A DNA stretch of 64,000 bases from an uncultured virus (IMG/VR IMGVR_UViG_3300040971_000013). Lineage: Duplodnaviria; Heunggongvirae; Uroviricota; Caudoviricetes. Within the stretch, counting starts at the first letter, position 1. Every line of letters starts with the position of its first letter. The position numbers were made by a program, and so were the translations under genes. The notes beneath the pieces are model-generated. The model ran no database searches. It was not told the origin of the DNA and saw only the letters and a list, made by a program, of their open reading frames with translations. The DNA lies in IMG/VR virus record IMGVR_UViG_3300040971_000013. One strand, 5' to 3'. Positions 2,414 through 43,812 of this stretch are shown here, one piece after another.

Positions 2414-2933
2414 GAAGAAAGAAGAATATGATGAGTTGGTTCCACATTCTCAGGTAGTAGAAATAGTGCCTGAGAATGAATCTACAGATCGTAAGGCTAT
2501 AGGGCTGTTTGATATTATCAACGACATATCAAGTCATTCTAATGTCATCTCAGAGCTTATAGAAACGGAAGGATTTCCAAAAGAATATTCAGCATTCATG
2601 ATAACTAAAGCATTTGGTAATTTTTATGATACTATACTTCTAGCTAATGAAATGAATTTGCGTCACTGGATTCCTAATGAAGCTCATTATCATTTTCTTT
2701 ATAATTCTGTTTATCCACGGAAGAGATTTTCCAAATGGTATAAACAGACTTCTGATGAAAATTTCTCTCACATCGCAAAGGTATTAAATATTTCAGAACG
2801 TGTACTGCGACTGATTTACAAAAACATTCCCAAGGAGTCTATTGATGCTATACTTGAATACAAAGACGGACAAGTCGAAACCAAAAAATCAGCCTCTACA
2901 AAAACAACCAAAAAGAAAAGCAAACGCTCTTAA
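2403..2933 (+). CDS. gp62: Clamp loader small subunit (gp62-like)
   Basis: LLANEMN...HFLYNSVYPRKRFSKWYK motif; synteny. Confidence 0.85.
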   Translation: MARKKKEEYDELVPHSQVVEIVPENESTDRKAIGLFDIINDISSHSNVISELIETEGFPKEYSAFMITKAFGNFYDTILLANEMNLRHWIPNEAHYHFLYNSVYPRKRFSKWYKQTSDENFSHIAKVLNISERVLRLIYKNIPKESIDAILEYKDGQVETKKSASTKTTKKKSKRS

Positions 2934-3678
2934 TGATTCAAAAAATATCAAGTTTAATGAAAAAGTAGTTGAAAAATCTAATGGTGAACACGTTACATTG
3001 TGGAGTTATTTTGTAACTACCAATATGGTTCAACTGCAGGATGACTATCCTCCGTTCCCTTCTACATGTGTTGATCTGTATTTGTATAATGAAATTCTTG
3101 ATGTAGAATTATACACTGAAGTATTTCATCTATTGCGGAATCTTGAAAAGCCAGATGAACTACATATTTACATTAACTCTCCAGGCGGTTCTGTAAATAC
3201 TACAGCTTCTTTCCTTGCTGTTATCAGTGAACTTCCTTGTATCATTGTGACTCATATTGACGGCGTTGCTGCATCTGCTGCATTCATCCTTGCTCTGACT
3301 GGTGATTATATTGAGATCGGGCCTTACTCTTCTTTAATGGCTCACAATTTCTCTCTTTCTACATTCCATACAGACGGAGCCAATTTGTCTAAATACTTGG
3401 ATTCTATGAAAGCTACTTATCGTGAGATGTTGTTTGAATATGGTACTAAAATTCTATCTGATGAAGAGATCAAAGGAATTCTTGACCATGGCCATGAACT
3501 ACATCTAACAGCAAAAGAAGCAAAGACGAGATTTGAAGCTTATATTGAACGGAAGAAAAAAGAATCTGAAGCAAAGACTAAAGTTAAACGTAAAACTATC
3601 AAAAAGAAACTTTGTTCAACTGATCTTCCACCAGAACAAGAAGATGCTCTCGTCAAGGATCTTGCTGAAGCAGTCTAA
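2842..3678 (+). CDS. ClpP-like serine peptidase (start uncertain)
   Basis: IYINSPGG, AASAA (catalytic Ser), LMAH (catalytic His). Confidence 0.75.
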   Translation: MMLYLNTKTDKSKPKNQPLQKQPKRKANALNDSKNIKFNEKVVEKSNGEHVTLWSYFVTTNMVQLQDDYPPFPSTCVDLYLYNEILDVELYTEVFHLLRNLEKPDELHIYINSPGGSVNTTASFLAVISELPCIIVTHIDGVAASAAFILALTGDYIEIGPYSSLMAHNFSLSTFHTDGANLSKYLDSMKATYREMLFEYGTKILSDEEIKGILDHGHELHLTAKEAKTRFEAYIERKKKESEAKTKVKRKTIKKKLCSTDLPPEQEDALVKDLAEAV

Positions 3679-3735: not shown

Positions 3736-3750
3736 TAACATGGAGGACGA

Positions 3751-5361
3751 GTGCAGTATCTAAATGTATACCGAGGCAGACGTGGGCTATGTGTACGAGA
3801 ACACGATGGAAAAAAGGAGATTCGTAGAAAGGTATCATTTAAGCCTTCTCTCTATGCTAGATGTTCTGATGGATCAGCAGATTTCATGGATTTCTATGGT
3901 GGTCCAGTTCAGAAGATAACCTTTGAGTCTATGTATGAGATGAAAAACCATGTAAAAAATTATGGAGATATGCCCGGAGAGCTTTGGGGTAATACAAATC
4001 CAATCTATCAGTATATCTATGAGACATATAAAGACGAGCCGAATCCTAATAACGTCAATATTGCTTTCCTTGACATCGAAGTACTATCCAAACAACTGAT
4101 CAATGGTGAATGGGTTGATGGTGGCTTTCCGGTTGCATCTGAAGCAAAGTTCCCGGTCAATGCTATCTGTCAATATAACTCAAGTAAAAAACGATTTACA
4201 GTATACACAACTGCTCTATGGAATATCAATAAGTCTATTCTAAAATATAAGGATCTTGTTGATTATATCTACTGTAAATCAGAAGAAGAACTGATCGAAA
4301 AATGGATTGATGCCTGGGAATCTGATACACCTGCTATTCTAACTGGATGGAATGTTTTAAGTTTTGATGTTACATATATGATCAATAGAATAAAGATTGT
4401 CCTTGGCGAAGACGAAACAAAGCGTTTATCTCCTTGGGGAGTTATTGATTCTAGAGAAACAAAGAACAATTTTGGACAATCAGAAATCTCTTATTCTATC
4501 GCTGGTGTTGCTATCCTAGATTATATTGACCTCTACAAGAAATATCGCTATAAGCCTCGTGAAAAATATACTCTTTCCTTTATTGCTAAATGTGAACTGA
4601 AGGAAGATGAATACAAATTAGAATATGAAGGATCGTTGAATAATCTTTATTATGACAATCCAACATACTTTGTTGACTACAACATCAATGACGTATTCTT
4701 AATTACAAAGTTTGAAGAGACACTACAGTTCGTACAGATTGCGGTATTCCTAGCGTACTTTGCTGGTATTAACATTGAAGATTCATTCAGTCCAATTAGA
4801 ATATGGGATACACTGATCTATCGAGAATGTGAGAACCGTGGTATTGCTATTCCAATGGATAAAATGTCAGAAGCTGTTGAATATGAAGGCGCGTATGTCA
4901 TGGATCCTATTCCAGGATTAAAGAAATGTATTGTCAGCTTTGACCTAACCTCATTATATCCGTCTATTATGAGACAATGGGCTATTGGTAAGGATAAACA
5001 TATATCTGGATCCGCTCATATGGATCTGATGAATGGGTTGATAGAAGTACTGCAAAATGAACAAAATTCAAATGCTTCTCGACAAATTCTTACAGACATT
5101 CAACAAAAAGGTGGTTTTGGAGAATATTATATTGAAAATGACATTCCAGAGTGTATGTCTGAATATCTTAAAAAGAACAATGTGACTATGACTGTGAACA
5201 ATCAATTCTTTTCTATCGAAGGTGAATCTGTTTTTGCTTACTTGATTAACAAACTTTTCAAGGAACGTAAAGAAAACAAAAAAATGTCTCAGGATTATAA
5301 AAAGATGGCAAAAGAAGTAGACGAAGAATTGACACGGCGTGGATATGTTGATAAAAAGTAA
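3751..5361 (+). CDS. gp43: DNA polymerase B, part A (exonuclease + motif A + first finger helix)
   Basis: FLDIEV, TGWNVLSFD, YNINDV exonuclease motifs; SFDLTSLYPSI motif A; ends in the fingers; GTG start with GGAGG. Confidence 0.95.
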   Translation: MQYLNVYRGRRGLCVREHDGKKEIRRKVSFKPSLYARCSDGSADFMDFYGGPVQKITFESMYEMKNHVKNYGDMPGELWGNTNPIYQYIYETYKDEPNPNNVNIAFLDIEVLSKQLINGEWVDGGFPVASEAKFPVNAICQYNSSKKRFTVYTTALWNINKSILKYKDLVDYIYCKSEEELIEKWIDAWESDTPAILTGWNVLSFDVTYMINRIKIVLGEDETKRLSPWGVIDSRETKNNFGQSEISYSIAGVAILDYIDLYKKYRYKPREKYTLSFIAKCELKEDEYKLEYEGSLNNLYYDNPTYFVDYNINDVFLITKFEETLQFVQIAVFLAYFAGINIEDSFSPIRIWDTLIYRECENRGIAIPMDKMSEAVEYEGAYVMDPIPGLKKCIVSFDLTSLYPSIMRQWAIGKDKHISGSAHMDLMNGLIEVLQNEQNSNASRQILTDIQQKGGFGEYYIENDIPECMSEYLKKNNVTMTVNNQFFSIEGESVFAYLINKLFKERKENKKMSQDYKKMAKEVDEELTRRGYVDKK

Positions 5362-5375
5362 TCTGGAGGATACTA

Positions 5376-5482
5376 ATGGACCTAACTAATAAATCTATTG
5401 AAGAATTACTACAACTAAGAAAAGAACTGAAACAAAAATCTGAGATCTTTAACGTATTACAGTTGGTGAAAAAGATCGCCCT
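5376..5482 (+). CDS. gp43: DNA polymerase part B, exon 1 (not in ORF track)
   Basis: GGAGG RBS + ATG 5376; MDLTNKSIEELLQLRKELKQKSEIFNVLQLVKKIA(L), the first half of motif B. Confidence 0.88.
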
Positions 5483-5731
5483 TAACTAATGGGGGCCTGA
5501 TATGGTGACATATCAGTGATAACCGCGTGAAAACGGTGAACATCCAGAAATGGAAAATACCGTGCCAAGCCAGATATCTGGAAGGTGTAACGACTATGGG
5601 AGCGATCCCAGTAGAATCAAGTGATTCGAAGCGCGCGGCATGTCTATGTACATGAAGAGATAGTCTGATCTGGATAGTAATATTCAGCTGCGAAAGCGAG
5701 CGAAACTTAACGAACTTCGCTGAACACAATG
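5483..5731 (+). ncRNA. Group I intron (IA2-like), ORF-less, 249 nt
   Basis: P1 GCCCU|...GGGGC with U-G at the 5' splice site; P2 CTGATATG-GTGA-CATATCAG; P3 CCGCGTG/CGCGCGG; P4 ACGGT/ACCGT; P7 region GACTAT(5592)/ATAGTC(5660); P7.1 and P7.2 hairpins; terminal G5731; splicing restores KIALNSCYG. Confidence 0.92.
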
Positions 5732-6269
5732 CAATTCCTGTTATGGTGCAATCGGATCCAGATTCTTTAGATACTATACTCCTGCAATGGCAGAAGCTAT
5801 TACACTGTCAGGACAGATGATTATTAAGAAGTCTGGTAAAGAAACTAATGATTATGTTAACCGGCTTCTAAAGAATAAAGACTATAAAAACTATCTAGTG
5901 TATACGGATACGGATTCTGTTGTTGGAGATACTGAAATCTATAGCAATGGAGAAAAGAAAACTATTGAAGCTTTCTATGATTCTATTACAACAGATGAGC
6001 GTATCTTGGGAGAAGACAATTTTATCAAGAGCGTACATGGGTATGATACTCTGAGTGTTTTTGATTCAGAAGTAGTTGCAACCCCTATAGTATATGTTAT
6101 GAAACACAAAGTCAAGAAGAAGCTATATAAACTTAGTATTGGTAATAAAAGTGTAGTTATAACTGAAGATCATTCATTGGTGGTGATGAGATCTGGAGAA
6201 CTAATATCAATCAAACCAAAAGATATTGACCCAGCCGATGAATTACTATATCTAACAGGAAGTGTGTAG
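5732..6269 (+). CDS. gp43: DNA polymerase part B, exon 2 (motif B-C) fused to N-intein
   Basis: NSCYGAIGSRFFRYY...AEAITLSGQ...YTDTD, then the intein. Confidence 0.92.
5916..6266 (+). mobile_element. Split intein N-half (117 aa) at the Pol-c site
   Basis: Block A SVVGDTEI directly after YTDTD; block B ITEDHSL; ends at TAG. Confidence 0.9.
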
Positions 6270-7268
6270 ATGCAATTATTAAAAGGCAACAATTGGAGTC
6301 TTGAAGATCTTGGAGTAGTCGAAGAATGGGTTTATGATTTTGAAACAGAAAATCATATGTTTTTTGCTAATGATATTCTTGTACATAATTCTAACTATTT
6401 TGAATTATTCGACATTTTAGAAAAGTACTGTCCAAAAGACTATACTGCTGATCAAAAAACAGATTTCATGGACGCAGTCTGTAAACGAATAGAATCCCAA
6501 TGTCTTGCTCCTCTGTATGAAAAGATGCATAAAGAATTGAATTGTCATCCAGAAAACAAAGCTCTACATATGGACCGAGAAGTCATTGCTGTTGGAGCAG
6601 ACAAAACTGGAACATGTGGATTCTGGACTGGAAAGAAACGATATGCTCTATTAGTAAATGACATGGAAGACTATAGATATCCAGAACCAAAAATGAAGGT
6701 CATGGGACTAGCATCTATTCAGTCATCTACTCCGGAGATTTGTAGAAAAGATCTATCAGCCTCAGAAAAGATGTTGATTACTGAAGGCGTAGAAGCGGTT
6801 AGAACATATATTGAAGAAGTCTACACTCGGTTTATGTCTAAATCCCCTGAAGAAATAGCATTACCGAAATCTGTTTCAGACGTAGCAAAATATGTAGACC
6901 CTCAAACTGGTCTACCGTGGGTTGGTGAATGGTATGATCATAAAAATCAGAAGACACGAAACGGTGGTGTTCCAATTCAGAGTTCTGCTGCAGTCAATTA
7001 CAATTTTCTGATAAATAAATTTGGTCTATCAAAAAAATATCAGAAAATACTTGATGGAGATAAGATCAAATTCATTCACTTATATGACAATCCATATAGA
7101 TTCAAAGTGATTGGATTCAACGATGTTCTTCCAGAGGAATTCGGACTGCACAAATATATCAACTATGAGGCCCACTATGAAAAGGCTTTTCTGTCTCCTC
7201 TACGTGATATTCTAACAGCCTGTAGTCTCCAACTCGAAAAGACTGTCTCCATTGATGATTTCTTCTAG
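6270..7268 (+). CDS. gp43: C-intein (40 aa, 6270-6389) + DNA polymerase part C (palm end, thumb)
   Basis: VYDFETENHMFFANDILVHN|SNYF; MDRE, KKRYAL, KVMGL..QSSTP; C-terminal SIDDFF. Confidence 0.93.
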   Translation: MQLLKGNNWSLEDLGVVEEWVYDFETENHMFFANDILVHNSNYFELFDILEKYCPKDYTADQKTDFMDAVCKRIESQCLAPLYEKMHKELNCHPENKALHMDREVIAVGADKTGTCGFWTGKKRYALLVNDMEDYRYPEPKMKVMGLASIQSSTPEICRKDLSASEKMLITEGVEAVRTYIEEVYTRFMSKSPEEIALPKSVSDVAKYVDPQTGLPWVGEWYDHKNQKTRNGGVPIQSSAAVNYNFLINKFGLSKKYQKILDGDKIKFIHLYDNPYRFKVIGFNDVLPEEFGLHKYINYEAHYEKAFLSPLRDILTACSLQLEKTVSIDDFF

Positions 7269-7516: not shown

Positions 7517-8191
7517 ATGATATTAGTTTGTGGAGATCTTCATGGAAGATGGGGAATATTGAATGCTCTAATCAACAAAAAACAACCAGAGATTATTCTG
7601 CAATGTGGGGATTTCGGTTTATATGAGAAATTTGGATGTTTCGTATCTGACATAAAACCTCATGACACAAAGATCTATTTCTGTGATGGAAACCATGAGA
7701 ACTTTGACATTCTAGACGATCTTCGGAACAAACATGGAAATGTTCCGATTGAATATGCTAGGAATATATTCTACTGTCCTCGTGGGTCTGTTCTAGAACT
7801 ACCTGATAAACGTAAAGTATTGTTTATGGGTGGTGCTGATTCTATTGATAAGAATTATAGAACTATTGGAGTAGATTGGTTCAAACAGGAAATCATCTCT
7901 CAATCAGATATAGATGGCCTTCCAGAAACAGATATCGATATTGTTATATCTCATACATGTCCGCTCTCTGTCCTTGGATATCTTAATGAAGCATGGGTCC
8001 GAGACATTAGACAAAGAGATCCGTCTGTAGTTGCTTTGGATATTGTCTATGAGAAATACAGACCGAAAGAATGGTACTTTGGACATTGGCACGTCTACAA
8101 GAAATTTAAACATGAACAAACAGTTTTTACTGCTCTATCTCATAATAGATCAGAACAACAATGGTGGGTAACTTTACAGGAGGATATTTAA
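7517..8191 (+). CDS. Calcineurin-like metallophosphoesterase
   Basis: GDLHG, GDFG, DGNHEN, SHTCP, FGHWH; ATG 7517 follows GGAGG. Confidence 0.9.
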   Translation: MILVCGDLHGRWGILNALINKKQPEIILQCGDFGLYEKFGCFVSDIKPHDTKIYFCDGNHENFDILDDLRNKHGNVPIEYARNIFYCPRGSVLELPDKRKVLFMGGADSIDKNYRTIGVDWFKQEIISQSDIDGLPETDIDIVISHTCPLSVLGYLNEAWVRDIRQRDPSVVALDIVYEKYRPKEWYFGHWHVYKKFKHEQTVFTALSHNRSEQQWWVTLQEDI

Positions 8192-9105
8192 TGTCTAAGT
8201 TAATGGAAAAGATTTTAAAGAACAGTACTACTAAACATGCTGCCATGCTTTATGATTCAGTTATGTTTAAGGATAAAGATATTATCTCAACTGATATTCC
8301 GGTTATAAATATTGCATTTTCCGGTGAATTAGATGGTGGGATCATTTCTGGTTTAACACTTCTTGCTGGTCCGTCTAAAGTTTTCAAATCTATGCTTGCG
8401 CTTGTTTGTGTAAAAGCATTTCTTGATAAGTATAAAGATGCAGTTTGTATTTTTTATGATTCAGAGGGTGGCATTACTCCTGACTATCTTTGTTCGTTAG
8501 GAATCGATCCAACACGAGTAGTACATATTCCGATTGAACATATAGAAATGTTGAAGTTTGATATTGTAAAACAGCTTCAAGAAGTAGATAGAAAGGATAA
8601 AGTTATTATTGTTATAGATTCTATAGGAAATACTGCGAGTCTAAAAGAACTTGAAGATGCTATCAATGAAAAGTCTGTTGCAGAAATGCAAAGAGCAAAG
8701 AGCATTAAAGGGTTGTTTAGAATGGTCACACCTTCTTTAGTAACAAAGGATATTCCCTGCATTGCGATATGCCATACATATCAAGAGATGGGTTTGTATC
8801 CCAAACAAATAATTTCTGGAGGTTGCCTTCTTCCAGGAACCAAAATTATTTTAGCCGACGGATCAACCAAAAATATAGAAGAAGTTGTTGTTGGTGATCA
8901 AGTAAAAACTTCTTCTGGTAGTTCTGACGTTTACGCTGTATGGAATCCAGATACATTGGAAGATGGAATTCCTGAATGTTATGAAATAGAACTAGAAGAC
9001 GGATATATCATTAGATGTTCTGAAAACCACAAGTTCTTAGTCAATGGAGAATGGATTTCAGCGAAAGATTTATCTATTGGAAATGACTTAGATACTGTAG
9101 TATAA
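8191..9105 (+). CDS. uvsX: UvsX recombinase N-part + N-intein (8824-9102, 93 aa)
   Basis: AGPSKVFKS, YDSEGG, IDSIGN; ISGG|CLLPGTKI block A; CSENHKF block B. Confidence 0.95.
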   Translation: MSKLMEKILKNSTTKHAAMLYDSVMFKDKDIISTDIPVINIAFSGELDGGIISGLTLLAGPSKVFKSMLALVCVKAFLDKYKDAVCIFYDSEGGITPDYLCSLGIDPTRVVHIPIEHIEMLKFDIVKQLQEVDRKDKVIIVIDSIGNTASLKELEDAINEKSVAEMQRAKSIKGLFRMVTPSLVTKDIPCIAICHTYQEMGLYPKQIISGGCLLPGTKIILADGSTKNIEEVVVGDQVKTSSGSSDVYAVWNPDTLEDGIPECYEIELEDGYIIRCSENHKFLVNGEWISAKDLSIGNDLDTVV

Positions 9106-9187: not shown

Positions 9188-9715
9188 ATGAAAATAACTA
9201 GTATTAAACCAATCGGCAAACATGAAGTATATGATATTGCTGTCACAGATGATGAACATTATATTCTTGAAAACGGCGTAATATCTCATAACAGTGGCCT
9301 TATTTATTCTGCAAATCAAGCATTTATTATTGGAAAATCACAAGTTAAAGAAGGAACTGATATAGTAGGTTATAACTTTACTATCAATGTTGAGAAATCA
9401 AGATTTGTAAGAGAAAAATCTAAATTACCTTTTACTGTAACATATGAAAACGGTATTATGAAATATTCAGGCTTACTTGATATTGCGTTAGAACTAGGAA
9501 CAATTCAGAAAGTTGGCGTGGGCTGGTATTCCAGAGTTATTGATGGTGTTCTAGAAGATAAAAAGTATAGAGCAAAACAAACCCTTACAAAAGAATTTTG
9601 GGATATCATATTAAATTCTGATGATTTTAAAGATAAGATTAAAAAAAGGTATCAATTAGGGGCAATTTCTCCTGAGAATGATCTAGAAACTGATAATCAG
9701 GAATTGGCTTCATAG
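9188..9715 (+). CDS. uvsX: C-intein (35 aa) + UvsX C-part
   Basis: MKITSIK...VYDIAV...ENGVISHN|SGLIYSA; VEKSRFVREKSK UvsX motif. Confidence 0.95.
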   Translation: MKITSIKPIGKHEVYDIAVTDDEHYILENGVISHNSGLIYSANQAFIIGKSQVKEGTDIVGYNFTINVEKSRFVREKSKLPFTVTYENGIMKYSGLLDIALELGTIQKVGVGWYSRVIDGVLEDKKYRAKQTLTKEFWDIILNSDDFKDKIKKRYQLGAISPENDLETDNQELAS

Positions 9716-10496
9716 AAGCCAAATATATCCAAACACCATTACTAGAATTAACAAGTTCTATTGCCTCTTCTTTTGGTAGACGACGTCGTTGTTTAGTAAT
9801 GGTGTTTGCGATATGTTTTCTATTCATATTTGATTCGCTGTTTTTCTTGTTCCATTCTTCTGTTTTTTGAATTTTTTTACATGATTCTGACATTTTTTGT
9901 TTATATTCTTCTGAATGTTGTTTACCGTACATATGATGTCTTTCACCTTTTAGAATTGAATCATTTTTTAATTTTGTTGCTAACATTTTGTCAATTGTTT
10001 CTTGTGGAATAGTATTTCCTGTTAAAGCCTTTGAAATTTTATTTCGTGTTTCTTCTGAATGATGTTTACCGTACATATGATGGTTTTCTTTACATTTAAA
10101 TCTTTCTTTCATTCTGATCGAATTGAATAGGCTATGTGTAGTTCGTATTTTTTCAAATTCTCTAGATGAAAGCTTATATCTGTTATCATTTACGGACATA
10201 AAAGCCATCATGAAATATGCATAAAACATCTTTTTAGCATATATAGTTGATACACTTGCTTTATAGAGCAATTTATGACATAAGTAATGTTCTCTTGCTG
10301 TTAAAATTGCGATATTAAATTTATCGGATTTCTGTTCTTTTGATTGACATAAGCATTTTGGAAGAATATGATGTTTTTCGGTATATATTTTTGAAGATAA
10401 AGTTCTATGTAGTGATTTTTCGATGATTTGTGTATAATACAAAGTATACTTGTTAATTGGCAAATTTTTCAATAATGATTCTAAATAAATATTCAT
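9639..10496 (-). CDS. Free-standing HNH homing endonuclease with NUMOD3 repeats
   Basis: EKHHILPK...NIAILTAREHYLCH; two HHMYGKxHSEE repeats; late promoter TATAAATA on the minus strand at 10565-10572. Confidence 0.9.
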   Translation of the reverse strand: MNIYLESLLKNLPINKYTLYYTQIIEKSLHRTLSSKIYTEKHHILPKCLCQSKEQKSDKFNIAILTAREHYLCHKLLYKASVSTIYAKKMFYAYFMMAFMSVNDNRYKLSSREFEKIRTTHSLFNSIRMKERFKCKENHHMYGKHHSEETRNKISKALTGNTIPQETIDKMLATKLKNDSILKGERHHMYGKQHSEEYKQKMSESCKKIQKTEEWNKKNSESNMNRKHIANTITKQRRRLPKEEAIELVNSSNGVWIYLASMKPIPDYQFLDHSQEKLPLIDTFF

Positions 10497-10602
10497 ACTG
10501 ATATTTTCTCCATTAAAATATTAGAGCTCTTGGATACTGGTAATATCGCGAAGAGCATTTATATTATTTATAATAAAGTTTAAAGGGGGTTTTGTATGAT
10601 AT

Positions 10603-10878
10603 ATGAAGACGAGAAAGAATATGCTCTCAGCTGATGAATTTATAGTAACAATATTAGATAAAGAATATCTGATAAAGGGTCTTTCCTTGGAGGGAGACCC
10701 TTCCATTGACAAAAAATTGACAATGGAATATTCTGTATCTTCTGATTTACCTCTAACCGACGATGACCACGAGCTCGTCAAAGGTTTTCTATCCGCACTT
10801 GTTAAGGAGAGCATGAATGGAGTTAACGGAAAAGATTGTCTTAAAGAACCTAATCCTCAACCCGAACTATTTTCTTAA
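10603..10878 (+). CDS. Small protein in the gp40 position
   Basis: Synteny between uvsX and gp41 only. Confidence 0.45.
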   Translation: MKTRKNMLSADEFIVTILDKEYLIKGLSLEGDPSIDKKLTMEYSVSSDLPLTDDDHELVKGFLSALVKESMNGVNGKDCLKEPNPQPELFS

Positions 10879-12178
10879 AGTATATCCGTTCATTGAAGAA
10901 TCATTATTTTCAGAAAGAATCACACAAAAATTATTCAAAGCAATATCAGCATATAATAACAAGTATAATAGACAAGCAAATCTTCCAGTAATAAATGTAT
11001 TCATTGAATCTATCAAAGGCGTCTCAGATACAGAATATAAAGCTCTAAAGGAACTTGAACAGTATTTCCATACAAATGAAACTTTTGCAGACGATTGGTT
11101 GTTTGATGAAACAGAATCTTGGATTCAGAAACGGAAGTATTATGAATCCTTGATTGGAGCCGCTGAGAAGTTTGAGAAAGGAGAGCTTGATACCACTCTG
11201 ACCGATAAGATTGATGCTGCTCTTTCTATTACCTTTGATAATAACATTGGTATGGAATTCTCAGAGGCTGAAAACAGATGGGAATCTTATATATCAGAAG
11301 AATCACATATTCCGTTTTTACTTGATGAATTCAATGCTATTACTAATGGTGGTGTTTATCCAAAAACATTGAATTGCTTATTGTCATCTGATTCTGGTGG
11401 ATTCAAATCTGGAACACTTTGTCATCTATCAGCTGACTATATTAGAACTGGTAAGAACGTTCTCTATATTACACTTGAAATGGCTGAGGATAAGATTCTT
11501 GAACGAATTGATGCCAATATGCTTGATGTTGAAATTGATAATCTTGTTGGACTTGGAAAAGAAACTTTTATTCGAAGCATTGATGAATGCAAGAGAAAGA
11601 TCCAGGGAAGGTTGATTGTCAAACAGTTTCCTACCACTGTTTGTCATGTTGGCCATATTCGTTATCTGTTGAAAGAACTGAAACTGAAAAGAAATTTTAT
11701 TCCAGATATTATATGTGTAGACTATTTGAATCTAATGGCATCGCTTCGATTGAAAGCAGCAGACTCTGGTAATTCATATGGTTATATAAAAGCTATCACT
11801 GAAGAGCTTCGAGGACTTGCTATTGAACAGGATCTTGCTATTTGGACTGCAACTCAGTCAAATAGAGGTGGAGTGGAGAATGAAAATCTGTCCGTTACAG
11901 ACATATCAGAATGTATTTTTGTAAAAGAAAAAGTGGTTTTACATAACGGATCCAAAGTTATCATATCTAATCTTCAAGTCGGTGATTTGATTCAATCGCA
12001 TAACGGAAATAGAGAAGTAAAACATGTTTTTGATACACAGAAAAAAGAGTGTATAAAAATAAAACTTAAATCTGGAAAAGAAATTATAGTATCAAAATCA
12101 CATAAATTTCCAACTGTTCTTGGCCGTAGATCATATTATGATGGTTTGTCAGTTGGAGATAAGATGAATTCGGTATAA
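10817..12178 (+). CDS. gp41: Replicative helicase gp41 N-part + N-intein (11912-12175, 88 aa)
   Basis: LYITLEM, VDYLNL, TATQSNR; DISE|CIFVKEKV; VSKSHKF block B. Confidence 0.95.
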   Translation: MELTEKIVLKNLILNPNYFLKVYPFIEESLFSERITQKLFKAISAYNNKYNRQANLPVINVFIESIKGVSDTEYKALKELEQYFHTNETFADDWLFDETESWIQKRKYYESLIGAAEKFEKGELDTTLTDKIDAALSITFDNNIGMEFSEAENRWESYISEESHIPFLLDEFNAITNGGVYPKTLNCLLSSDSGGFKSGTLCHLSADYIRTGKNVLYITLEMAEDKILERIDANMLDVEIDNLVGLGKETFIRSIDECKRKIQGRLIVKQFPTTVCHVGHIRYLLKELKLKRNFIPDIICVDYLNLMASLRLKAADSGNSYGYIKAITEELRGLAIEQDLAIWTATQSNRGGVENENLSVTDISECIFVKEKVVLHNGSKVIISNLQVGDLIQSHNGNREVKHVFDTQKKECIKIKLKSGKEIIVSKSHKFPTVLGRRSYYDGLSVGDKMNSV

Positions 12179-12187
12179 GACCAATAG

Positions 12188-12237
12188 TAAATCCACCGCC
12201 TAAATATAAATAAAATAAAATTTAGGCGGTGGATTTA
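12188..12237 (+). promoter_or_regulatory. Homing-endonuclease control hairpin with T4 late promoter
   Basis: Perfect 18-bp stem TAAATCCACCGCCTAAAT/ATTTAGGCGGTGGATTTA covering the RBS; TATAAATA at 12205-12212. Confidence 0.85.
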
Positions 12238-13326
12238 ATGACTAGACTTGATACTATAAAATCAGAAGACGAGTTTTACAATTGGGTTTCAAATCTCAAC
12301 GATATCAAAAAACATTTCGATTTTTCTATTGCAACCGAAGAACAAATAGAATTTTTTAAAACTGAGGGATATATTGTTTTCTGTAGTGATATTTCTTTAT
12401 CTTCCAAATGTAAGAGATACCAAGTTATTGCAAAACTTCTTGCTACTGGCACTGGAAACTATAAACAGCGGCTTGTTGATTATTATGCTACAACTAATCC
12501 GTATGAAAAGCAAAGAATACTCTATGGAGAAGAAAAGTTAGAAAAATTAAAGAAGATTGCATCTGATATCGCAAAGAAAAATTTTGAACGTCTTGGAGCT
12601 CCCGCTTCAAAGGAACGATTGCTTCGTAGGGGCGGCACTGAAGAAGAATATAATCTTAGAACAGAAAAATCAAGAATCAAAGCAGAAAAAACACGACAGA
12701 AGAATATAGCAGATGGATATATTGCGAAACCCGGCCGGAATTCTTATCAGTACTGGATGGATTTAGGATATTCTCGTGAAGACGCTAGAACTATATTAGA
12801 AGAAGAATATTTTTTCAATAGTTATGTAGCGCCAACATTGGAAGGATATATTAAGAGATATGGCGAAGAAGAAGGAACATTGAAGTTTTCTGAAGTATGT
12901 AAAAAGAGAATTGCAACTAAACGTGAACGATACGGCACGGCCTTTATATATACTAGAGTATCTAAAGAAGCTATAAGAGTTTTTACACCATTACTGGAAT
13001 ATCTATATGAAAAAGGATATGACAAGGCGCGAATATATGGTATTAACTCAAAAGAATATTTTATTCGTACCGATGATGAGATATTCTTTTATGATTGTGT
13101 TATTTTAGACAAAAAGATTATTATAGAATATAACGGCTCACTCTGGCATGTAAATCCAAATGTGGTAACGAGGTTTGCTCCGTTTTTGGATAAAGAGTTA
13201 ACAATTGAAAAAGATCGTCGAAAAAGAGAGATTGCCGAAGCTAATGGATTTACATTCTATGTCATTTGGGATACTGATAATTGTCAAGAAAAAATACAGG
13301 AGATAATTGATGAACATTCTTTGTGA
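12229..13326 (+). CDS. Vsr-like/PD-(D/E)xK homing endonuclease between the split-intein halves (start may be ATG 12238)
   Basis: C-terminal FYDCV...IIIEYNGSLWH...KD..K...A...GF....IWD; YGEEEG-type repeats. Confidence 0.85.
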   Translation: MDLMTRLDTIKSEDEFYNWVSNLNDIKKHFDFSIATEEQIEFFKTEGYIVFCSDISLSSKCKRYQVIAKLLATGTGNYKQRLVDYYATTNPYEKQRILYGEEKLEKLKKIASDIAKKNFERLGAPASKERLLRRGGTEEEYNLRTEKSRIKAEKTRQKNIADGYIAKPGRNSYQYWMDLGYSREDARTILEEEYFFNSYVAPTLEGYIKRYGEEEGTLKFSEVCKKRIATKRERYGTAFIYTRVSKEAIRVFTPLLEYLYEKGYDKARIYGINSKEYFIRTDDEIFFYDCVILDKKIIIEYNGSLWHVNPNVVTRFAPFLDKELTIEKDRRKREIAEANGFTFYVIWDTDNCQEKIQEIIDEHSL

Positions 13327-13879
13327 TGCCAATGATATGCTATTAATAGAGCGAATCCACGCTTTATCTCAGATGCATATAAAACAGTATGATATTAAAG
13401 ATTATACATATGATGAAATTTTTGAAGCTATTTCTATTTTAGAACTTGAACGCATGGAAAAGGAAAAAGAATTTGATTCTTTAATAGACTTTAATGATGA
13501 AATTGTTTCAATTGAAGATGTTGGAGAATTAGATGTAGTTGATATTACTGTAGATGGTGATAGCTTATTTTACTGTAATAATGTACTTACAAAAAATTCA
13601 TATGGCACGCTATTTACTCTTGACGTTCTGATTGGTATCATTACTACAGAAGAATTTGATGCTCAGAATAAGATACTATATAAACAGTTGAAGAATCGTT
13701 ACGCTGATAAAAACAAAATGAATAAGTTTTTTCTTGGTGTAAATAAGGCTAAGATGACTCTATATTCACAGATGCAGCGTGGTATATCACCTGACAATAG
13801 ACAAGAAAAACAAGAAGATGAACAAAACGCTATGATGTTCAAAGGCAAAAAGAACAAGTTTGATAATTTCAACTTTTAG
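13310..13879 (+). CDS. gp41: C-intein (ends 13597) + gp41 C-part
   Basis: DEIVSIE...DITVDGDSLFYCNNVLTKN|SYG; KQLKNRY; AGGAG RBS before ATG 13310. Confidence 0.92.
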   Translation: MNILCDANDMLLIERIHALSQMHIKQYDIKDYTYDEIFEAISILELERMEKEKEFDSLIDFNDEIVSIEDVGELDVVDITVDGDSLFYCNNVLTKNSYGTLFTLDVLIGIITTEEFDAQNKILYKQLKNRYADKNKMNKFFLGVNKAKMTLYSQMQRGISPDNRQEKQEDEQNAMMFKGKKNKFDNFNF

Positions 13880-21582: not shown

Positions 21583-21931
21583 TAAAAGGATAAGAAATGA
21601 TTATTAAATGTTGTTGCTGTGCCAGACAGATCACGCATCATAATACAAGCAATGATTATGAGTGTCCTTTGCCAGCTACATATATGGGTCCTACTGTTGG
21701 GTATTGTTGTGCTGAATGTTCGAAGGATTTAGATTCAGAAGGAATGTTTCCAGAAGAGAGAGGACTGTACTAGTGTTAACAGAAGGCTCTACTAGATCTA
21801 ACATAAAATATAATATATTATCTCGAAGACCGACTTCTCCTCCACCAGCACCTAAAGCAAAGAATTCTATTGACATCAAAGATGAATCTGAATATTCTAA
21901 TCTTAACATAAACAAAATCACAGAGATTAAA

Positions 21932-23251
21932 GTGCACAAAGAAATTACACAGAAGATCATAGAAGCAGGGTTTGAATGTTATTATGTCGGTGGATGTGTC
22001 CGTGATGAGATCATGGGCATCATTCCCGATGATTATGACATCACAACCAATGCCAAACCAGAAGAGATTTTTGAAATCTTCAAAGATTCTCATAAGGTTG
22101 TTTATTGTGGTGAAGCTTTCAAGGTTGTCCGTGTTGGAGACATTGAAGTTGCTACCTATAGAAAGGATCATTACTTTGGTAACTCTGATAAGAATTGTGT
22201 AATTGAATATGCTGATTCTATTGAAGAGGATTTGAGTCGCAGAGATTTAACGGTGAATGCAATAGCCAAGTGTGCTAAAACTGGAAAGATTGTTGATCCT
22301 TTTAATGGAAGAAGTGATATCTTTAATAGGCTCATTTCGTTTGTTGGTGATCCATTTGAGCGAATTAAGGAAGACCCTAATAGAATGATTCGTGTTGCCA
22401 GATTTGCCGCAAAGATGAATGCTATCATTGAACAAGACACTCTGGAAGCAATCAGAAATTCTAAACATATGTGTAAGTTCATTGCTAAAGAAAGAATTTC
22501 AACTGAGATTCTGAAAGCAATGAAGATCAAACATGCGTCTTGGTTCTTTACTTCACTTTTAGATTGCGGTCTATTGAAAGAAATATTTCCGACTCTTGAC
22601 CGATGTTTATATCATGACGGCGGACCACATCACAAAGAAGACCTGTTTCAGCACCAGATGATTGCAGGAGACTTCATGTCGACTCGGTGTGCAGTCATGA
22701 AACTTGCAGCATATATCCATGATATTGGAAAGTATCATGCCTATGATAAGAATGAACGAACTTTTATCGGACATGAGTTTATTGGGGAAAAAGTTGCAAG
22801 AAAAGAACTAAAAGAATTGCGATTTTCTAATGAGATCGTAGATCGGATCTGTTCGCTGATCAAGCTTCACATGAGAAACAACTATGGATCTGAGAAAAGT
22901 GTTAGAAAGCTTATCAGAGAGTTCCAAGAACATGGAATTGATTACCGATCACATACTCGGTTGAAGCTCTCAGACCGTGCTGGAAACCTTTCTAAGCCTA
23001 ACTTCAAGTACTCTGAAATTAAAGCTATTCTATTGAAATATGAAGAACTGTTTACAGCCGATCAGAATTCGGTATTCTCTATTCGAGATCTAGCTGTTAA
23101 CGGAAAGGATATCATGGAATGGTTTGCTATGAGTCCAGGGAAGAAGGTTGGTGAATTTCTATCATGTGCTCTTGAAGCTGTATTGGATAAGAAAGTAAAT
23201 AATGAAAAGGAACCTCTATTGAGATATCTCACAGCCAATTTATTTTATTGA
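21932..23251 (+). CDS. tRNA nucleotidyltransferase (CCA-adding) with HD domain
   Basis: VGGCVRD, DYD, DLSRRDLTVNAIA, EDPNRMIR, ERI, HDIGK; promoter at 21870-21898 favours the GTG 21932 start. Confidence 0.9.
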   Translation: MHKEITQKIIEAGFECYYVGGCVRDEIMGIIPDDYDITTNAKPEEIFEIFKDSHKVVYCGEAFKVVRVGDIEVATYRKDHYFGNSDKNCVIEYADSIEEDLSRRDLTVNAIAKCAKTGKIVDPFNGRSDIFNRLISFVGDPFERIKEDPNRMIRVARFAAKMNAIIEQDTLEAIRNSKHMCKFIAKERISTEILKAMKIKHASWFFTSLLDCGLLKEIFPTLDRCLYHDGGPHHKEDLFQHQMIAGDFMSTRCAVMKLAAYIHDIGKYHAYDKNERTFIGHEFIGEKVARKELKELRFSNEIVDRICSLIKLHMRNNYGSEKSVRKLIREFQEHGIDYRSHTRLKLSDRAGNLSKPNFKYSEIKAILLKYEELFTADQNSVFSIRDLAVNGKDIMEWFAMSPGKKVGEFLSCALEAVLDKKVNNEKEPLLRYLTANLFY

Positions 23252-25881: not shown

Positions 25882-26919
25882 ATGAAAGAAAAAATCTTAG
25901 AAACAATACAGAATAATCTACCAGACGGTTATGATCTATTATATGCAACTATTACAGGATCAAGACTTTATGGAACTCATAACGAGAATTCTGATACTGA
26001 TGTAAAGTTTATCTTCAAACCTTCGTTAGATGATTGTATCCTTGGTATTGCTTCTAGAAACCTGAATATGAATACATCTAATGATAAAGAAGCAAATTCT
26101 AAAGATGACATAGATATTCAAGGATGGTCTATTCAGTTCTTTTTAGATCTTCTGCGTAAAGGTGATACTAACGCTATTGATGTTCTGTATTCAATAAGCA
26201 ATACTGATTGTGTTGTATATTATCCAGAGAAAAGAGGTGCTACGTATCAGTATTCTATGATTATGGAAGATCTGTTTAGTAATCCTCTTGCTTATTTTGA
26301 TCTGTCTAATATGAGAGGATTGCTTGGGTATGTCGTGTCAATGTCAGATAAGTACGGTCTTAAGGGAAGTCGATATTCTAAGTTGCTTGAAGTCTCTAAA
26401 GTCACAGATGAAGAAGTCGACAAGGTTCTATTCAAAAATTTGGATCCAATTCGTCTAGATGATATCTACGAAAAGATCCTTGAGAAATGCGGAGACAATA
26501 CTTTCTGCAAATATGAAGTTTGCCAAGATAAAAGAAAAGCAATTCGTCTCGGTGGAAAAGTTCATCTATTAGAGATTTCCATTCACGAATTCATGAGAAG
26601 GCTTGATTCAGAACTCAATAGATATGGTGAACGATCTAAGAAATCCCTTGATGGATCTGATTGGAAGGCTCTTTCCCACGCTTATAGAGGAATCGTCCAG
26701 ATAGCTGAATTGCTTGTTACGTATAATTTAAATTTTCCATTACAGAGCGCAGATGTTCTAAAAGAAATAAAAGAAGGTAAACTTTCTATGGAAAATGTGA
26801 ATGAAATGATAAGTTCTGGTTTACAAATTGTAGAAGATGAATTAAAAACTACTAAACGAACCAAAAAGGTGGACCACAATTTGATTAACAAAACAATTTT
26901 AGATCTTTACAGAGTTTAG
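25882..26919 (+). CDS. Pol-beta-family nucleotidyltransferase (T4 NrdC.11/RlaP-like)
   Basis: GSRLYGT...SDTD; DWKALSHAYR. Confidence 0.8.
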   Translation: MKEKILETIQNNLPDGYDLLYATITGSRLYGTHNENSDTDVKFIFKPSLDDCILGIASRNLNMNTSNDKEANSKDDIDIQGWSIQFFLDLLRKGDTNAIDVLYSISNTDCVVYYPEKRGATYQYSMIMEDLFSNPLAYFDLSNMRGLLGYVVSMSDKYGLKGSRYSKLLEVSKVTDEEVDKVLFKNLDPIRLDDIYEKILEKCGDNTFCKYEVCQDKRKAIRLGGKVHLLEISIHEFMRRLDSELNRYGERSKKSLDGSDWKALSHAYRGIVQIAELLVTYNLNFPLQSADVLKEIKEGKLSMENVNEMISSGLQIVEDELKTTKRTKKVDHNLINKTILDLYRV

Positions 26920-32207: not shown

Positions 32208-33365
32208 ATGCCTGTTGTAGAATTCCTTGCTAGATTTTCGGATAAAATGGAAGGCCTTGCAAAACTTGAAGAACTTTATGGAATCAAAGCCCGTGTCTAT
32301 GACAATTTCTTTCTCTTGAACTATTCTCAGATCGATTCTCCAAAAATGGATCCGATTGTTGCTGAATGTCGAGGAATCATTCTTGACTGGGATCTACATG
32401 TTCTACGTAGACCGTTTGATAGATTCTTTAACTACGGAGAAGCAGGAACCGATAAGTCATTTGATTTCAACGGATCTATCTGTTATGAAAAAGTTGATGG
32501 ATCTATTGTTCCTGTTTGGTATAATGGATTTGATGGTGAATGGGCAGCAGGAACTCGTGGAACTGCTTTTGCTGAAACAGAATGTGCGTCTGGCAGAGTG
32601 TTTTCTGATCTCATCACAGATACACTTGGATTCACTCCACATTATTTGTTGGCTAGTGCTGAGAAAATGCTGCAAGTTTCTTTAAACATGTATACGTTCA
32701 TCTTTGAATTGTGTACACCAGAAAACAGAGTAGTTACAAGATATCCAGAGTCTTTTATGGCTCTACTTGCTATTAGAAACAATGTGTCTGGAAGATATAA
32801 GTCTCAAGATTCTATTGCATTCTTTCATAACTTGTTTCGGCATATTCAGATAACTGCTAGCATTCCGGCTTCTATTCGTTTACCAAAGACATATGATATC
32901 TATGATATTGATTCAGCCAGATTTTCATTGAAGGATCTTGATGCTCTTGATGAAGGATATGTATTCTATAATCCGAAGACTCAAGATCGTGTAAAAGTGA
33001 AGAACCCATCTTATGTTGCTATTCATCATATTCGAGATAACGGCAATATGAATCCAAGAAGGATCTGTGATCTTGTCTTTCTGAATGAGACTGATGAATA
33101 TCTTCAGTACTTTCCAGAAGATACAAAATTCTTTTCTCCTTGGATCAATGCTTACAACGAATTCCATCGGACAGCTCTTGAGATCTATGAAAAGAATAAA
33201 CATATAGAATCTCAGAAGGAATTTGCTCTACAAGTAAAAGACCTTCCATATTCTGGTTTATTGTTTCAAATGAGACAAGGAAAAAGTTTTTCAGAGAGCA
33301 TAAATCGGTTGCATTCCGATAAAAAAGTAGATATACTAAATTCATTCAAAGGAAATGGAGAATAA
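32208..33365 (+). CDS. rnlA: RNA ligase 1 (T4 RnlA-like)
   Basis: ECRGII, FDRFFNYGE, EKVDGS, FELCTPENRVV, DEGYV, KVKNPSY. Confidence 0.9.
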   Translation: MPVVEFLARFSDKMEGLAKLEELYGIKARVYDNFFLLNYSQIDSPKMDPIVAECRGIILDWDLHVLRRPFDRFFNYGEAGTDKSFDFNGSICYEKVDGSIVPVWYNGFDGEWAAGTRGTAFAETECASGRVFSDLITDTLGFTPHYLLASAEKMLQVSLNMYTFIFELCTPENRVVTRYPESFMALLAIRNNVSGRYKSQDSIAFFHNLFRHIQITASIPASIRLPKTYDIYDIDSARFSLKDLDALDEGYVFYNPKTQDRVKVKNPSYVAIHHIRDNGNMNPRRICDLVFLNETDEYLQYFPEDTKFFSPWINAYNEFHRTALEIYEKNKHIESQKEFALQVKDLPYSGLLFQMRQGKSFSESINRLHSDKKVDILNSFKGNGE

Positions 33366-42622: not shown

Positions 42623-42895
42623 ATGAAAATTCGAGCAGGTTTTGTATCTAATTCGAGCAGCAGTTCTTTTGTGGTTCATAAGTCTGAACTTGGTGAGCAT
42701 TATAACGATATTGTAAATGATCTTGAATTGCTCTGTGATGAAGTGAGTGGTGAGTGGGGAGATTCTGGAGAAACTTATACTGAACAGCGTGGATATCTAT
42801 TTGTAGAAACTCATCGTGTCTATAATGAAGTAAAAGAAATCTTTGCTAAACATGGATTTGATTGTAACAATATTGGACTGCGGATGGTTGGCTAA
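42623..42895 (+). CDS. MKIRxGFVSNSSSSSF-family protein (paralog 3)
   Basis: N-terminal motif. Confidence 0.7.
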   Translation: MKIRAGFVSNSSSSSFVVHKSELGEHYNDIVNDLELLCDEVSGEWGDSGETYTEQRGYLFVETHRVYNEVKEIFAKHGFDCNNIGLRMVG

Positions 42896-43812
42896 TGAAC
42901 TTTATTAAGTATACTGATATAGAAAATCATTATCAGAGCAAGTATATTAACTATATGTTAGATAGATATCCTGAACTACGGACATGTAATTATATTGCTC
43001 AGGAGAAAATTGACGGATCTAACTTTCAGATTGCAGCTGATGGTGATACATTTCGGTTTGGATCTCGGAATCATCTACTAGATTCATCTGGCCATTTTCA
43101 GGGTATGAGTTTAGAAGAATTTGCTGATGAACATTTTAGATTCATATATGATCTACAGAAGTTTGCTATTGAACAGAAACAACCTGTCAGAGTCTTTGGT
43201 GAGTTATTCGGTAAAGGTATTCAGAACCGAGTATACTATGGAGAACATAAGTATTTTAGAATCTTTGATATGATGATCGGAGACGAATATCTTACACAAA
43301 AAGAATTCTACAATTCAGAGCTATTCTATGGGCACGATCTAATTGCAGCTGGTCATCCAAAATTACTTACTCTTGAAGAAGCTCTTTCACTTGATCCAAC
43401 AATCAATTCTCTCTATACTGGTCTTTTTTACGATAATCCAAATCCTATGGAAGGATATGTTATTAAACCATGGGAGATCAAGTCTTCTTTTAGAATCAAA
43501 TTGAAGAATCCTTCTTTTGCTGAAAAGTCTGTTGCTAGAGAAATCAAGAATAAAGAATATTCTGATAGAGTAAATGGTCTAAAAGCAAACTTTGAATCTT
43601 ATATCAATGATTCTCGGATCTTGTCGTGTTTCTCTAAGGTTGGACCAATTGAACAGATGTCTCAATTGGGTCATTTTATTTCTTTAATTCTTGAAGATGC
43701 TAAGGTAGACTTTTTCAAGGAGAACGAGACAAATGAATTGACAAAAGAAGAGGTCAAATATATATTCAATTCTGGAAAACAAATTGCACGAATGCTGCAA
43801 AATTATCTTTAA
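42895..43812 (+). CDS. RNA ligase 2 (Rnl2-like)
   Basis: YTDIEN, EKIDGSNF, FGELFG..IQ..VYY, FDM, EGYVIKP, KLKN..F.E. Confidence 0.88.
   Translation: MNFIKYTDIENHYQSKYINYMLDRYPELRTCNYIAQEKIDGSNFQIAADGDTFRFGSRNHLLDSSGHFQGMSLEEFADEHFRFIYDLQKFAIEQKQPVRVFGELFGKGIQNRVYYGEHKYFRIFDMMIGDEYLTQKEFYNSELFYGHDLIAAGHPKLLTLEEALSLDPTINSLYTGLFYDNPNPMEGYVIKPWEIKSSFRIKLKNPSFAEKSVAREIKNKEYSDRVNGLKANFESYINDSRILSCFSKVGPIEQMSQLGHFISLILEDAKVDFFKENETNELTKEEVKYIFNSGKQIARMLQNYL

Follow-up and report, generated by a model that had tools for sequence, protein, structure and literature searches.

The window analysed here is a 64,000-nucleotide stretch of DNA from an uncultured tailed phage (IMG/VR record IMGVR_UViG_3300040971_000013). 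It is the replication module of a T4-like phage, in which Pfam recognizes gp45, gp44/62, gp43, UvsX, gp41, topoisomerase II, RNase H, NrdD and ThyX. Our subject is the gene for the replicative DNA polymerase, gp43, which occupies three plus-strand open reading frames (ORFs): A (3751-5361), B (5376-5482 joined to 5732-6269) and C (6270-7268). From 5' to 3', the gene is interrupted by a break at the tip of the fingers that separates A from B, by a group I intron within motif B, and by an intein divided between B and C at motif C (Table 1; a slash marks a junction throughout).

Table 1. Features of the interrupted gp43 gene (nt, nucleotides; aa, amino acids; L002, an uninterrupted IMG/VR relative; Aes516, an Aeromonas phage)
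Feature	Position	Strand	Basis
gp43A: N-terminal domain, 3'-5' exonuclease, start of palm, first finger helix	3751-5361	+	Pfam, RB69 and L002 alignments
Finger-tip break module: diverged A tail, TAA, 14-nt spacer with GGAGG (5365-5369), ATG 5376, diverged B head	5281-5447	+	nt identity, protein alignment
gp43B exon 1: second finger helix to the Leu codon preceding Asn-Ser of motif B	5376-5482	+	ORF list, junction search, L002 empty site
Group I intron, 249 nt, no endonuclease ORF	5483-5731	+	RF00028, junction search, L002 empty site
gp43B exon 2 (N-extein): NSCYG of motif B to YTDTD of motif C	5732-5915	+	mapped through L002
Diverged tract just 5' of the intein site	5817-5915	+	nt identity to L002 of 63-73%, flanks about 90-98%
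N-intein, 117 aa, cysteine-less, starting with the S after YTDTD	5916-6266, TAG 6267-6269	+	PDB 9hth_A and Aes516 alignment
C-intein, 40 aa, ending ...NDILVHN	6270-6389	+	PDB 9hth_A, PolB16 intein and Aes516 alignment
gp43C extein: Ser+1, remaining palm, thumb; 292 aa	6390-7268	+	RB69/T4 matches

gp43A starts at a GTG preceded by GGAGGA (3742-3747) and runs for 536 aa; its C-terminus reads ...EELTRRGYVDKK, followed by TAA at 5359-5361. It matches the Pfam families DNA_pol_B_exo1 (E 2e-19) and DNA_pol_B (E 1e-10) and residues 24-433 of RB69 gp43 (E 3e-69), and it aligns with residues 1-535 of L002. The nearest cultured relative of gp43A is only 34.6% identical, and none of the 2,629 phage records that match it exceeds 60%. 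Exon 1 of gp43B has an ATG at 5376 behind GGAGG and, left unspliced, would terminate at TAA 5487-5489. When mapped through L002, the motifs of exon 2 fall at RB69 K560-G568 and D621-D623. gp43C matches residues 646-901 of RB69 gp43 (E 4e-24) and 651-897 of the T4 protein (E 4e-25), and its extein has the same frame as the C-terminus of L002. Once the predicted processing is applied, the polymerase motifs are all intact and in frame, and the joined product is 925 aa long, against 903 aa in L002, with 94.8% protein identity.

This anatomy agrees with the original prediction, which had been made from the letters and a list of ORFs. It had spread gp43 over three polypeptides, at coordinates that the ORF list bears out, and the alignment it called for finds A and C in their respective regions of RB69/T4 gp43. 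Part A was to stop in the fingers, and mapping by L002 and RB69 does put the break between the finger helices. The proposed intron at 5483-5731, restoring KKIALNSCYG within motif B, is upheld by the 64-bit RF00028 score, the unique junction and the L002 empty site. The 117-aa N-intein after YTDTD and the 40-aa C-intein ending VHN/S are likewise sustained by alignments and invariant columns.

What does this gene look like without its interruptions? L002, a 141-kb IMG/VR contig, has a single uninterrupted 903-aa gp43 that reads through all three break points, continuing through the finger tip, ...KKIALNSCYGAIG..., and ...DTDSSYFELF.... Its sequence is ...KKIALNSCYGAIGSRFF... at the intron junction and ...DTDSSYFELFDILEKY... 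at the intein junction, and because L002 reads exactly across them, both predicted junctions equal a natural empty site. RF00028 has no match anywhere in the 141-kb record. The diverged tract just upstream of the intein site looks like a co-conversion tract, both by its low identity and by the dN/dS of the B exons (0.11, where A and C have 0.03-0.04).

The A/B break maps, via L002 and RB69, between the two long finger helices, and Aes516 breaks at the same place. Each of the two cistrons has its own translation signals (TAA 5359-5361; GGAGG 5365-5369 and ATG 5376), as in finger-split polymerases of the Aeromonas phage 44RR/25 type. Nucleotide identity to L002 is 7-45% over the break module, versus about 90-98% elsewhere in the gene, and the module adds 22 residues relative to the uninterrupted sister. 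The gp43A tail carries the motif E-x-x-(R/K)-R-G-(L/I/Y)-stop, and because this motif is common to the window, to the Aeromonas phages Aes516/Aes508 and to five IMG/VR lineages (L015, L017/L043, L018, L035, L041) but absent from L002, the sequences suggest that the finger-tip module is itself transferable. The tail and head motifs may mark such a module, or may instead act as a helix cap or docking device. The tail motif (window 5320-5361) is also listed for L001 and L006 among the finger-split polymerases, and the B heads of these polymerases have (S/T)-x-E-E-L in common, a motif that the uninterrupted sister lacks.

About 100 nt downstream of the break, Rfam model RF00028 matches 5473-5687 when 5350-5850 is searched alone (64 bits, with the gathering score at 50; E 5e-16; the whole of the model, positions 1-253). 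The only U...G junction pair near this match that restores motif B in frame is 5482/5732, and the spliced reading across it is KKIAL-NSCYG. GCCCUU (5478-5483) pairs with GGGGGC (5491-5496) as P1, and the last intron base is G5731. The fold is more stable than that of shuffled sequences (minimum free energy z-score -3.8), and the gp43 intron of Aes516 is homologous, with 74% column identity. Covariation is extensive: in an alignment of nine gp43 introns, compensatory changes occur in 35 of the 42 predicted pairs. A score above the gathering cut-off, a U in P1 with a terminal G, a restored frame and compensatory changes are thus all found, as for a group I intron, and self-splicing is predicted by homology. 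L003, an IMG/VR relative from another sample, has an identical copy of the intron that also scores 64 bits. By blastn, the 3' half of the intron is tied to introns or endonuclease regions of Klebsiella, Acinetobacter, Xanthomonas and Enterobacter phages. An intron-encoded endonuclease was considered and rejected, as neither internal ORF (5457-5729, minus strand; 5527-5655, plus strand) has a PHROG match. Small group I introns are familiar from the td, nrdB and nrdD genes of T4 and from genes for the DNA polymerase in T7-like phages, where they occupy conserved sites in genes for replication and nucleotide metabolism; the window intron differs from these in its host gene site and in having no intron-encoded endonuclease. 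As a practical point, cmscan with default filters missed the intron on the whole 64-kb window and the short-stretch search recovered it; given this miss, other windows may conceal introns likewise.

The N-intein, which begins S-V-V-G-D-T..., matches PDB 9hth_A from its second residue on (E 1e-21), with a weak match to Pfam Intein_splicing; the C-intein matches 9hth_A (E 3.5e-5) and, over the first 44 residues of C, the PolB16 intein (8cpo/8cpn). The catalytic residues are all in place: Ser1, the K-H of MKHKVKK, T-E-D-H (block B / N3), the VHN end, and Ser+1 at 6390. Columns S44, H107, T126, D128 and H129 are invariant in 58 homologues. Ser1, T-x-x-H, His-Asn and Ser+1 are those of a class 1 split intein. 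The NX motif of Ser1 inteins is a histidine with Lys or Arg before it, according to the accessible text of Pasch et al. 2023 (PMC10189870), and the K-H of MKHKVKK has this form, its position being assigned from the sequence pattern. Neither half contains a cysteine. The halves lie on separate polypeptides, as the TAG at 6267-6269 abuts the ATG at 6270, in L003 as in the window. With 0 nt between the B stop and the C start, the arrangement departs from the 'fractured gene' of Dassa et al. 2009. Trans-splicing of B to C is expected from the behaviour of homologues.

Close relatives provide further alleles. L003 shares 98.5% nt identity with the window over 5.5 kb (77 mismatches) and has all three interruptions. 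In contigs from other studies, those of sequencing runs X5 and X7 (about 97% alike) span the A/B break together with the entire intron, while one from run X12 (about 94% alike) extends over that break and the intron 5' junction. A second X12 contig has the intron 3' end and then passes from the DTD codons to the C-extein, where 5 other letters replace the intein. From the layouts of L002, X12 and window/L003 it follows that there are at least three allelic states among close relatives: no interruption, split plus intron, and all three. A 798-nt X5 contig tracks the N-intein (window 5913-6253) and then diverges from the window sequence; it may come from a relative that still holds an insert between the intein halves. 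Two low-support X7 joints (5834/6396 and 5835/6391; side 27-28) were not used. The spliced 5482/5732 joint is not in the contigs of four runs, a result that has no bearing on splicing, as only contigs were available and 'RNA' libraries may hold DNA. Purifying selection is evident on all parts of the gene: dN/dS against L002 is 0.037 for A, 0.11 for the B exons and 0.034 for C.

Is the triple interruption peculiar to this phage? At least 467 IMG/VR stretches are related, and the best 80 loci were examined, with classes taken from hidden Markov model and ORF searches. The intein is split in 71 of them, contiguous in 8 and unknown in 1, and RF00028 scores above cut-off directly upstream of exon 2 in 11, with one further match outside the locus and one weak match at the right place. 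Unsplit fingers without an intron are the commonest state (43 loci with a split intein, 6 with a contiguous one). Finger-split genes without an intron have a split intein in 11 loci and, in one at a contig edge, an unknown one. Ten loci are finger-split with a break at motif B, an intron and a split intein, and a single locus (L029) has unsplit fingers, a break at motif B, an intron and a contiguous intein. A break at motif B with no intron over the cut-off is found in 4 loci (intein split in 3, contiguous in 1), and 4 more are unclear (2 at a contig edge, 2 other), with no intron and a split intein. The ten triple loci (L015, L033/34, L035/37, L040/41, L046, L076/77) fall into six 90% clusters, and exon-1 ORFs of 39-74 aa confirm their finger breaks. 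The triple interruption is therefore recurrent in environmental T4-like phages and no curiosity.

In a protein search with the 160-aa exon 2 plus N-intein ORF as query (E <= 1e-3, proteins of 88-280 aa), 182 protein-cluster relatives were found. All of the best 120 have DTD/S and then 103-171 residues to a stop; 84 have motif B after a short head (the finger-split, intron-less B-1 type), and 36 begin in or after motif B. Among 50,697 phage records the N-intein family occurs in 16, from phages of Aeromonas (10), Campylobacter (5) and Vibrio (1).

The intron goes with the finger split, both by loci ([[10,1],[12,49]], Fisher p 1e-5, with 8 unclear loci dropped) and by 90% clusters ([[6,1],[9,39]], p 0.001). 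The predicted intron junctions, computed under U...G and frame constraints only, lie 11 nt from the motif-B Lys codon in the window, 31 nt in Aes516, and 7, 9, 18-20 and 22 nt in other lineages. The gp43 introns of L001, L015, L029, L034, L035, L041, L046 and L077 are homologous and use several sites within about 25 nt of motif B, and the guide sequence of each fits its own 5' exon.

What brought these elements into gp43? In relatives, ORFs lie at the same breaks. Of those in finger breaks, 3 of the 4 tested match PHROGs named HNH or homing endonuclease, and all 9 tested from between gp43 intein halves match phrog_22677 (Vsr-like), a family that also includes an ORF inside the window's own fractured gene 41; Pfam matches of the inserted ORFs (Vsr, MTES_1575, DUF559) are all sub-threshold. 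The distance separating the N-intein stop from the C-extein, 120 nt in the window, is below 250 nt in 9 of 61 measurable loci, 250-700 nt in another 9, and at least 700 nt in 43, and these 43 fit the fractured-gene layout with an endonuclease gene between the halves. In collaborative homing, an intron that has no endonuclease of its own is mobilised by a free-standing endonuclease gene next to it (PMC2988022, in the part available, citing Bonocora & Shub 2009 and Petrov 2010), and because the presence of the intron goes with the finger split, their co-occurrence fits this process.

We consider it highly probable that the window holds a working T4-type replicative polymerase gene with the endonuclease-less remains of two homing cassettes. 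The first cassette would comprise the finger-tip break and the group I intron in motif B; where the finger break of relatives houses a free-standing homing-endonuclease gene, the window would keep only the remains, TAA, spacer and ATG. The second would be a Ser1 mini-intein at DTD/S, divided where relatives carry the Vsr-like gene (phrog_22677). Both endonuclease genes would have been lost, leaving TAG/ATG inside the intein. A broader scenario is offered only tentatively: motif B of T4-type gp43 might be an intron hot spot, where endonuclease-less introns hop among neighbouring positions in company with the finger-tip module (A tail ...E-x-x-R-R-G-L; B head M...S-x-E-E-L), and the window, L002 and the X12 relative might represent stepwise gain or loss of two collaborative-homing cassettes in a population near the species level.

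How could an active polymerase be made from such a gene? The best-supported reading, which we infer from homologues, is a maturation in three steps. The intron would first splice itself from the mRNA at 5482/5732, which would let translation of the B cistron proceed beyond motif B. Next, the intein halves borne by B and C would associate and trans-splice, giving a B-C chain that reads ...YTDTD-SNYF.... Finally, gp43A and gp43BC would assemble non-covalently through the two finger helices and the palm. Several points weigh against this reading, or against the evidence for it. For this phage, splicing, ligation and assembly are all argued from homologues. We looked by eye for a P10 pairing in the window intron and saw none that was convincing, and its 64 bits are toward the low end of the gp43 introns found (53-119 bits). 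The Shine-Dalgarno sequence of the C cistron is weak (GGAAG, 7 nt upstream of ATG 6270). Because the purified Aes123 split intein splices with about 30% efficiency in vitro (PMC11923092, in the part available), efficient ligation of B to C is not to be assumed. The dN/dS values against L002 are blind to whether selection preceded or followed the insertions, and the synonymous differences from L003 are clustered, so that a few patches of recombination, and not 16 separate events, may account for them. The association of intron and finger split, even at p 0.001, is controlled for kinship only by 90% clustering.

Might the elements instead persist for a regulatory role, with slow RNA or protein splicing setting, for instance, when or how much polymerase is made, and so be more than selfish relics? 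The layout does persist without an endonuclease gene in the window, L003, Aes516, L015 and L040/L041, and the window's uvsX and gene 41 carry split inteins too. Yet L002, so close in sequence, manages without all three elements, and the X12 relative has the split and the intron without the intein. Moreover, precise loss of such elements is hard, which would alone explain their persistence (PMC2988022, in the part available), and redox control is unlikely for an intein without cysteines. Regulation of this kind therefore seems improbable to us. Less probable still is that gp43 is a decaying pseudogene and that the phage uses another polymerase. Three interruptions within one essential gene invite the thought, and only 64 kb of genome are in view. 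Against it, the polymerase motifs are intact and in frame, the catalytic residues of intron and intein are all kept, dN/dS is 0.03-0.11, and 16 of the 16 differences between the L003 and window coding sequences are synonymous; Aeromonas phages that are viable in culture have this layout too, and a scan of 47 window ORFs showed no second polymerase.

It is hardly credible that one or both of the stops (5359-5361, 6267-6269) arose as errors of sequencing or assembly, or are bypassed by readthrough, so that there are fewer products and a cis-splicing intein: a single base change would turn the TAG directly before the ATG into part of a contiguous 157-aa mini-intein, such as 8 of the 80 related loci have, but both stops recur in L003, an independent assembly with its 77 mismatches, the A/B break is bridged by the X5 and X7 contigs, a stop falls directly after the N-intein in 71 of the 80 loci, the downstream cistrons each have their own start and Shine-Dalgarno sequence, and TAG ends 12 of the 67 plus-strand window ORFs of at least 120 aa (TAA 39, TGA 16) with no tRNA gene, suppressor or other, in the window, a pattern that supports standard decoding.

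The original prediction was right that finger-split gp43, phage group I introns and Pol inteins were each known already; each has been studied in the Aeromonas lineage. It also knew of no described case of all three in one gene, and here it was mistaken, since GenBank annotates the triple layout in two Aeromonas phages. In Aes516 (JN377905), Gp43A is a 'split DNA polymerase', Gp43B1 'contains putative intron and N-intein' and Gp43B2 'contains putative C-intein'. Aes508 (JN377894) has gp43A, gp43B-1 (group I intron plus N-intein) and gp43B-2 (C-intein); its finger break holds a Seg-like GIY-YIG gene, and a Vsr-like ORF separates the two parts of its intein. The triple-interrupted gp43 is thus an already annotated kind, of which the window is a further member. 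We found no paper describing the combination as such, only the GenBank annotation, in a search whose reach did not extend to Petrov 2010 and Bhagawati 2019.

How close is the window to these phages? It shares with Aes508, Aes516 and AS-gz (Aeromonas salmonicida; Tulanevirus; JN377894, JN377905, MF479730) all three interruptions and their order, with the intron inside the B cistron's motif B and, at DTD/S, a Ser1 split intein that has an HN/S C-terminus; tblastn puts the identity of the N-inteins at 42%. With Aes516 it further shares a homologous intron, a similar A-tail R-G motif and the lack of an endonuclease gene at either break, whereas Aes508 has both endonuclease genes. It differs from Aes516 in that the host polymerase is only 33.9% identical, the intron lies 20 nt upstream (at the Leu codon before Asn-Ser, not after Tyr-Gly-Ala) and has its own guide sequence, and the intein halves abut as TAG/ATG, while those of Aes516 overlap by 17 nt. 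The N-intein has 117 aa in the window, 141 aa in Aes516, and 120 aa in the Aes508 annotation and in PMC11923092.

Other studied systems resemble single parts of the gene; what follows is limited to the available portions of the papers cited. In Aeromonas phages 25 and 44RR, as in the window, the 43A and 43B cistrons are parted by an untranslated spacer (a system credited to Petrov, Ratnayaka & Karam 2010, J Mol Biol 395:457; PMC2988022, PMC2993671, PMC2677866), and the available portions of these papers mention no intein, which the window has. The two phage 25 products, gp43A and gp43B, purify together as an active polymerase, and the 25.g43B intron is predicted to owe its mobility to seg43(25), a free-standing endonuclease gene (PMC2988022, PMC2993671). 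Phage 25 thus resembles the window in its endonuclease-less group I intron in 43B, and differs in having a seg-like endonuclease gene. The naturally split Aes123 PolB1 intein (120 + 39 aa) trans-splices in vitro (PMC11923092). The window intein, which matched its structure (PDB 9hth), is like it in T4-type PolB insertion site, Ser1/Ser+1, lack of cysteine, and a split at the endonuclease position into about 117-120 and 39-40 aa, at about 42% identity. In a 'fractured gene', a free-standing Vsr-like endonuclease gene interrupts a phage replication gene at an intein (Dassa et al. 2009, PMC2677866). Gene 41 of the window (10817-13879) is a full example, as is gp43 of relatives; the window's gp43, unlike these, has no middle endonuclease ORF and would correspond to the later stage in the PMC2677866 model, after endonuclease loss. 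What the window adds is minor: a distant phage lineage, an intron 20 nt off the Aeromonas site, abutting TAG/ATG halves, and a natural series of empty and intermediate alleles.

Similar elements are found in the neighbouring genes. A uvsX/recA-like gene (8161-9105 and 9188-9715, plus strand) has a second split intein: its N part ends in a Cys1 N-intein (GG/CLLPGTK...), and its C part has a C-intein (...GVISHN/SGLIYS) followed by T4_UVSX_C. The halves are 82 nt apart in the window, where L002 has two extra ORFs, one of them in phrog_22677. The gene 41 helicase (10817-12178, 12229-13326 and 13307-13879, plus strand) is a classic fractured gene, with an N-extein and Cys1 N-intein, a 365-aa Vsr-like ORF (phrog_22677, E 4e-12), and a C-intein (...VLTKN/S) with its C-extein. 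With that of gp43, this replication module has three split inteins in a span of 10 kb. A free-standing homing-endonuclease gene (9639-10496, minus strand; NUMOD3 three times; phrog_655, E 3e-38) lies in a segment of about 1 kb (9572-10603) that is absent from L003, and so is polymorphic for presence and absence. Between the clamp loader and gp43 is a ClpP/head-maturation-protease-like ORF (2842-3678, plus strand; phrog_1827, E 5e-34), also found in L002; a T4-type replication module is an uncommon place for such a gene. RNA-repair-type genes (21716-23248, 25882-26916, 32208-33362 and 42895-43809) encode a CCA-adding/poly(A) polymerase-family enzyme with an HD domain, an RlaP-like nucleotidyltransferase, and T4 Rnl1-like and Rnl2-like RNA ligases.

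What does this gene mean for the T4-like phages? An essential replicase can tolerate three layers of interruption by selfish elements. In the window, L002 and L003, nature supplies near-isogenic alleles with and without the interruptions, in which the fitness cost of these elements could be measured. The intein, for its part, is new, fully cysteine-less and naturally split, of a class that the protein-engineering literature calls very rare (PMC10189870). The 182 protein clusters and at least 467 IMG/VR stretches suggest that metagenomes hold hundreds more such inteins.

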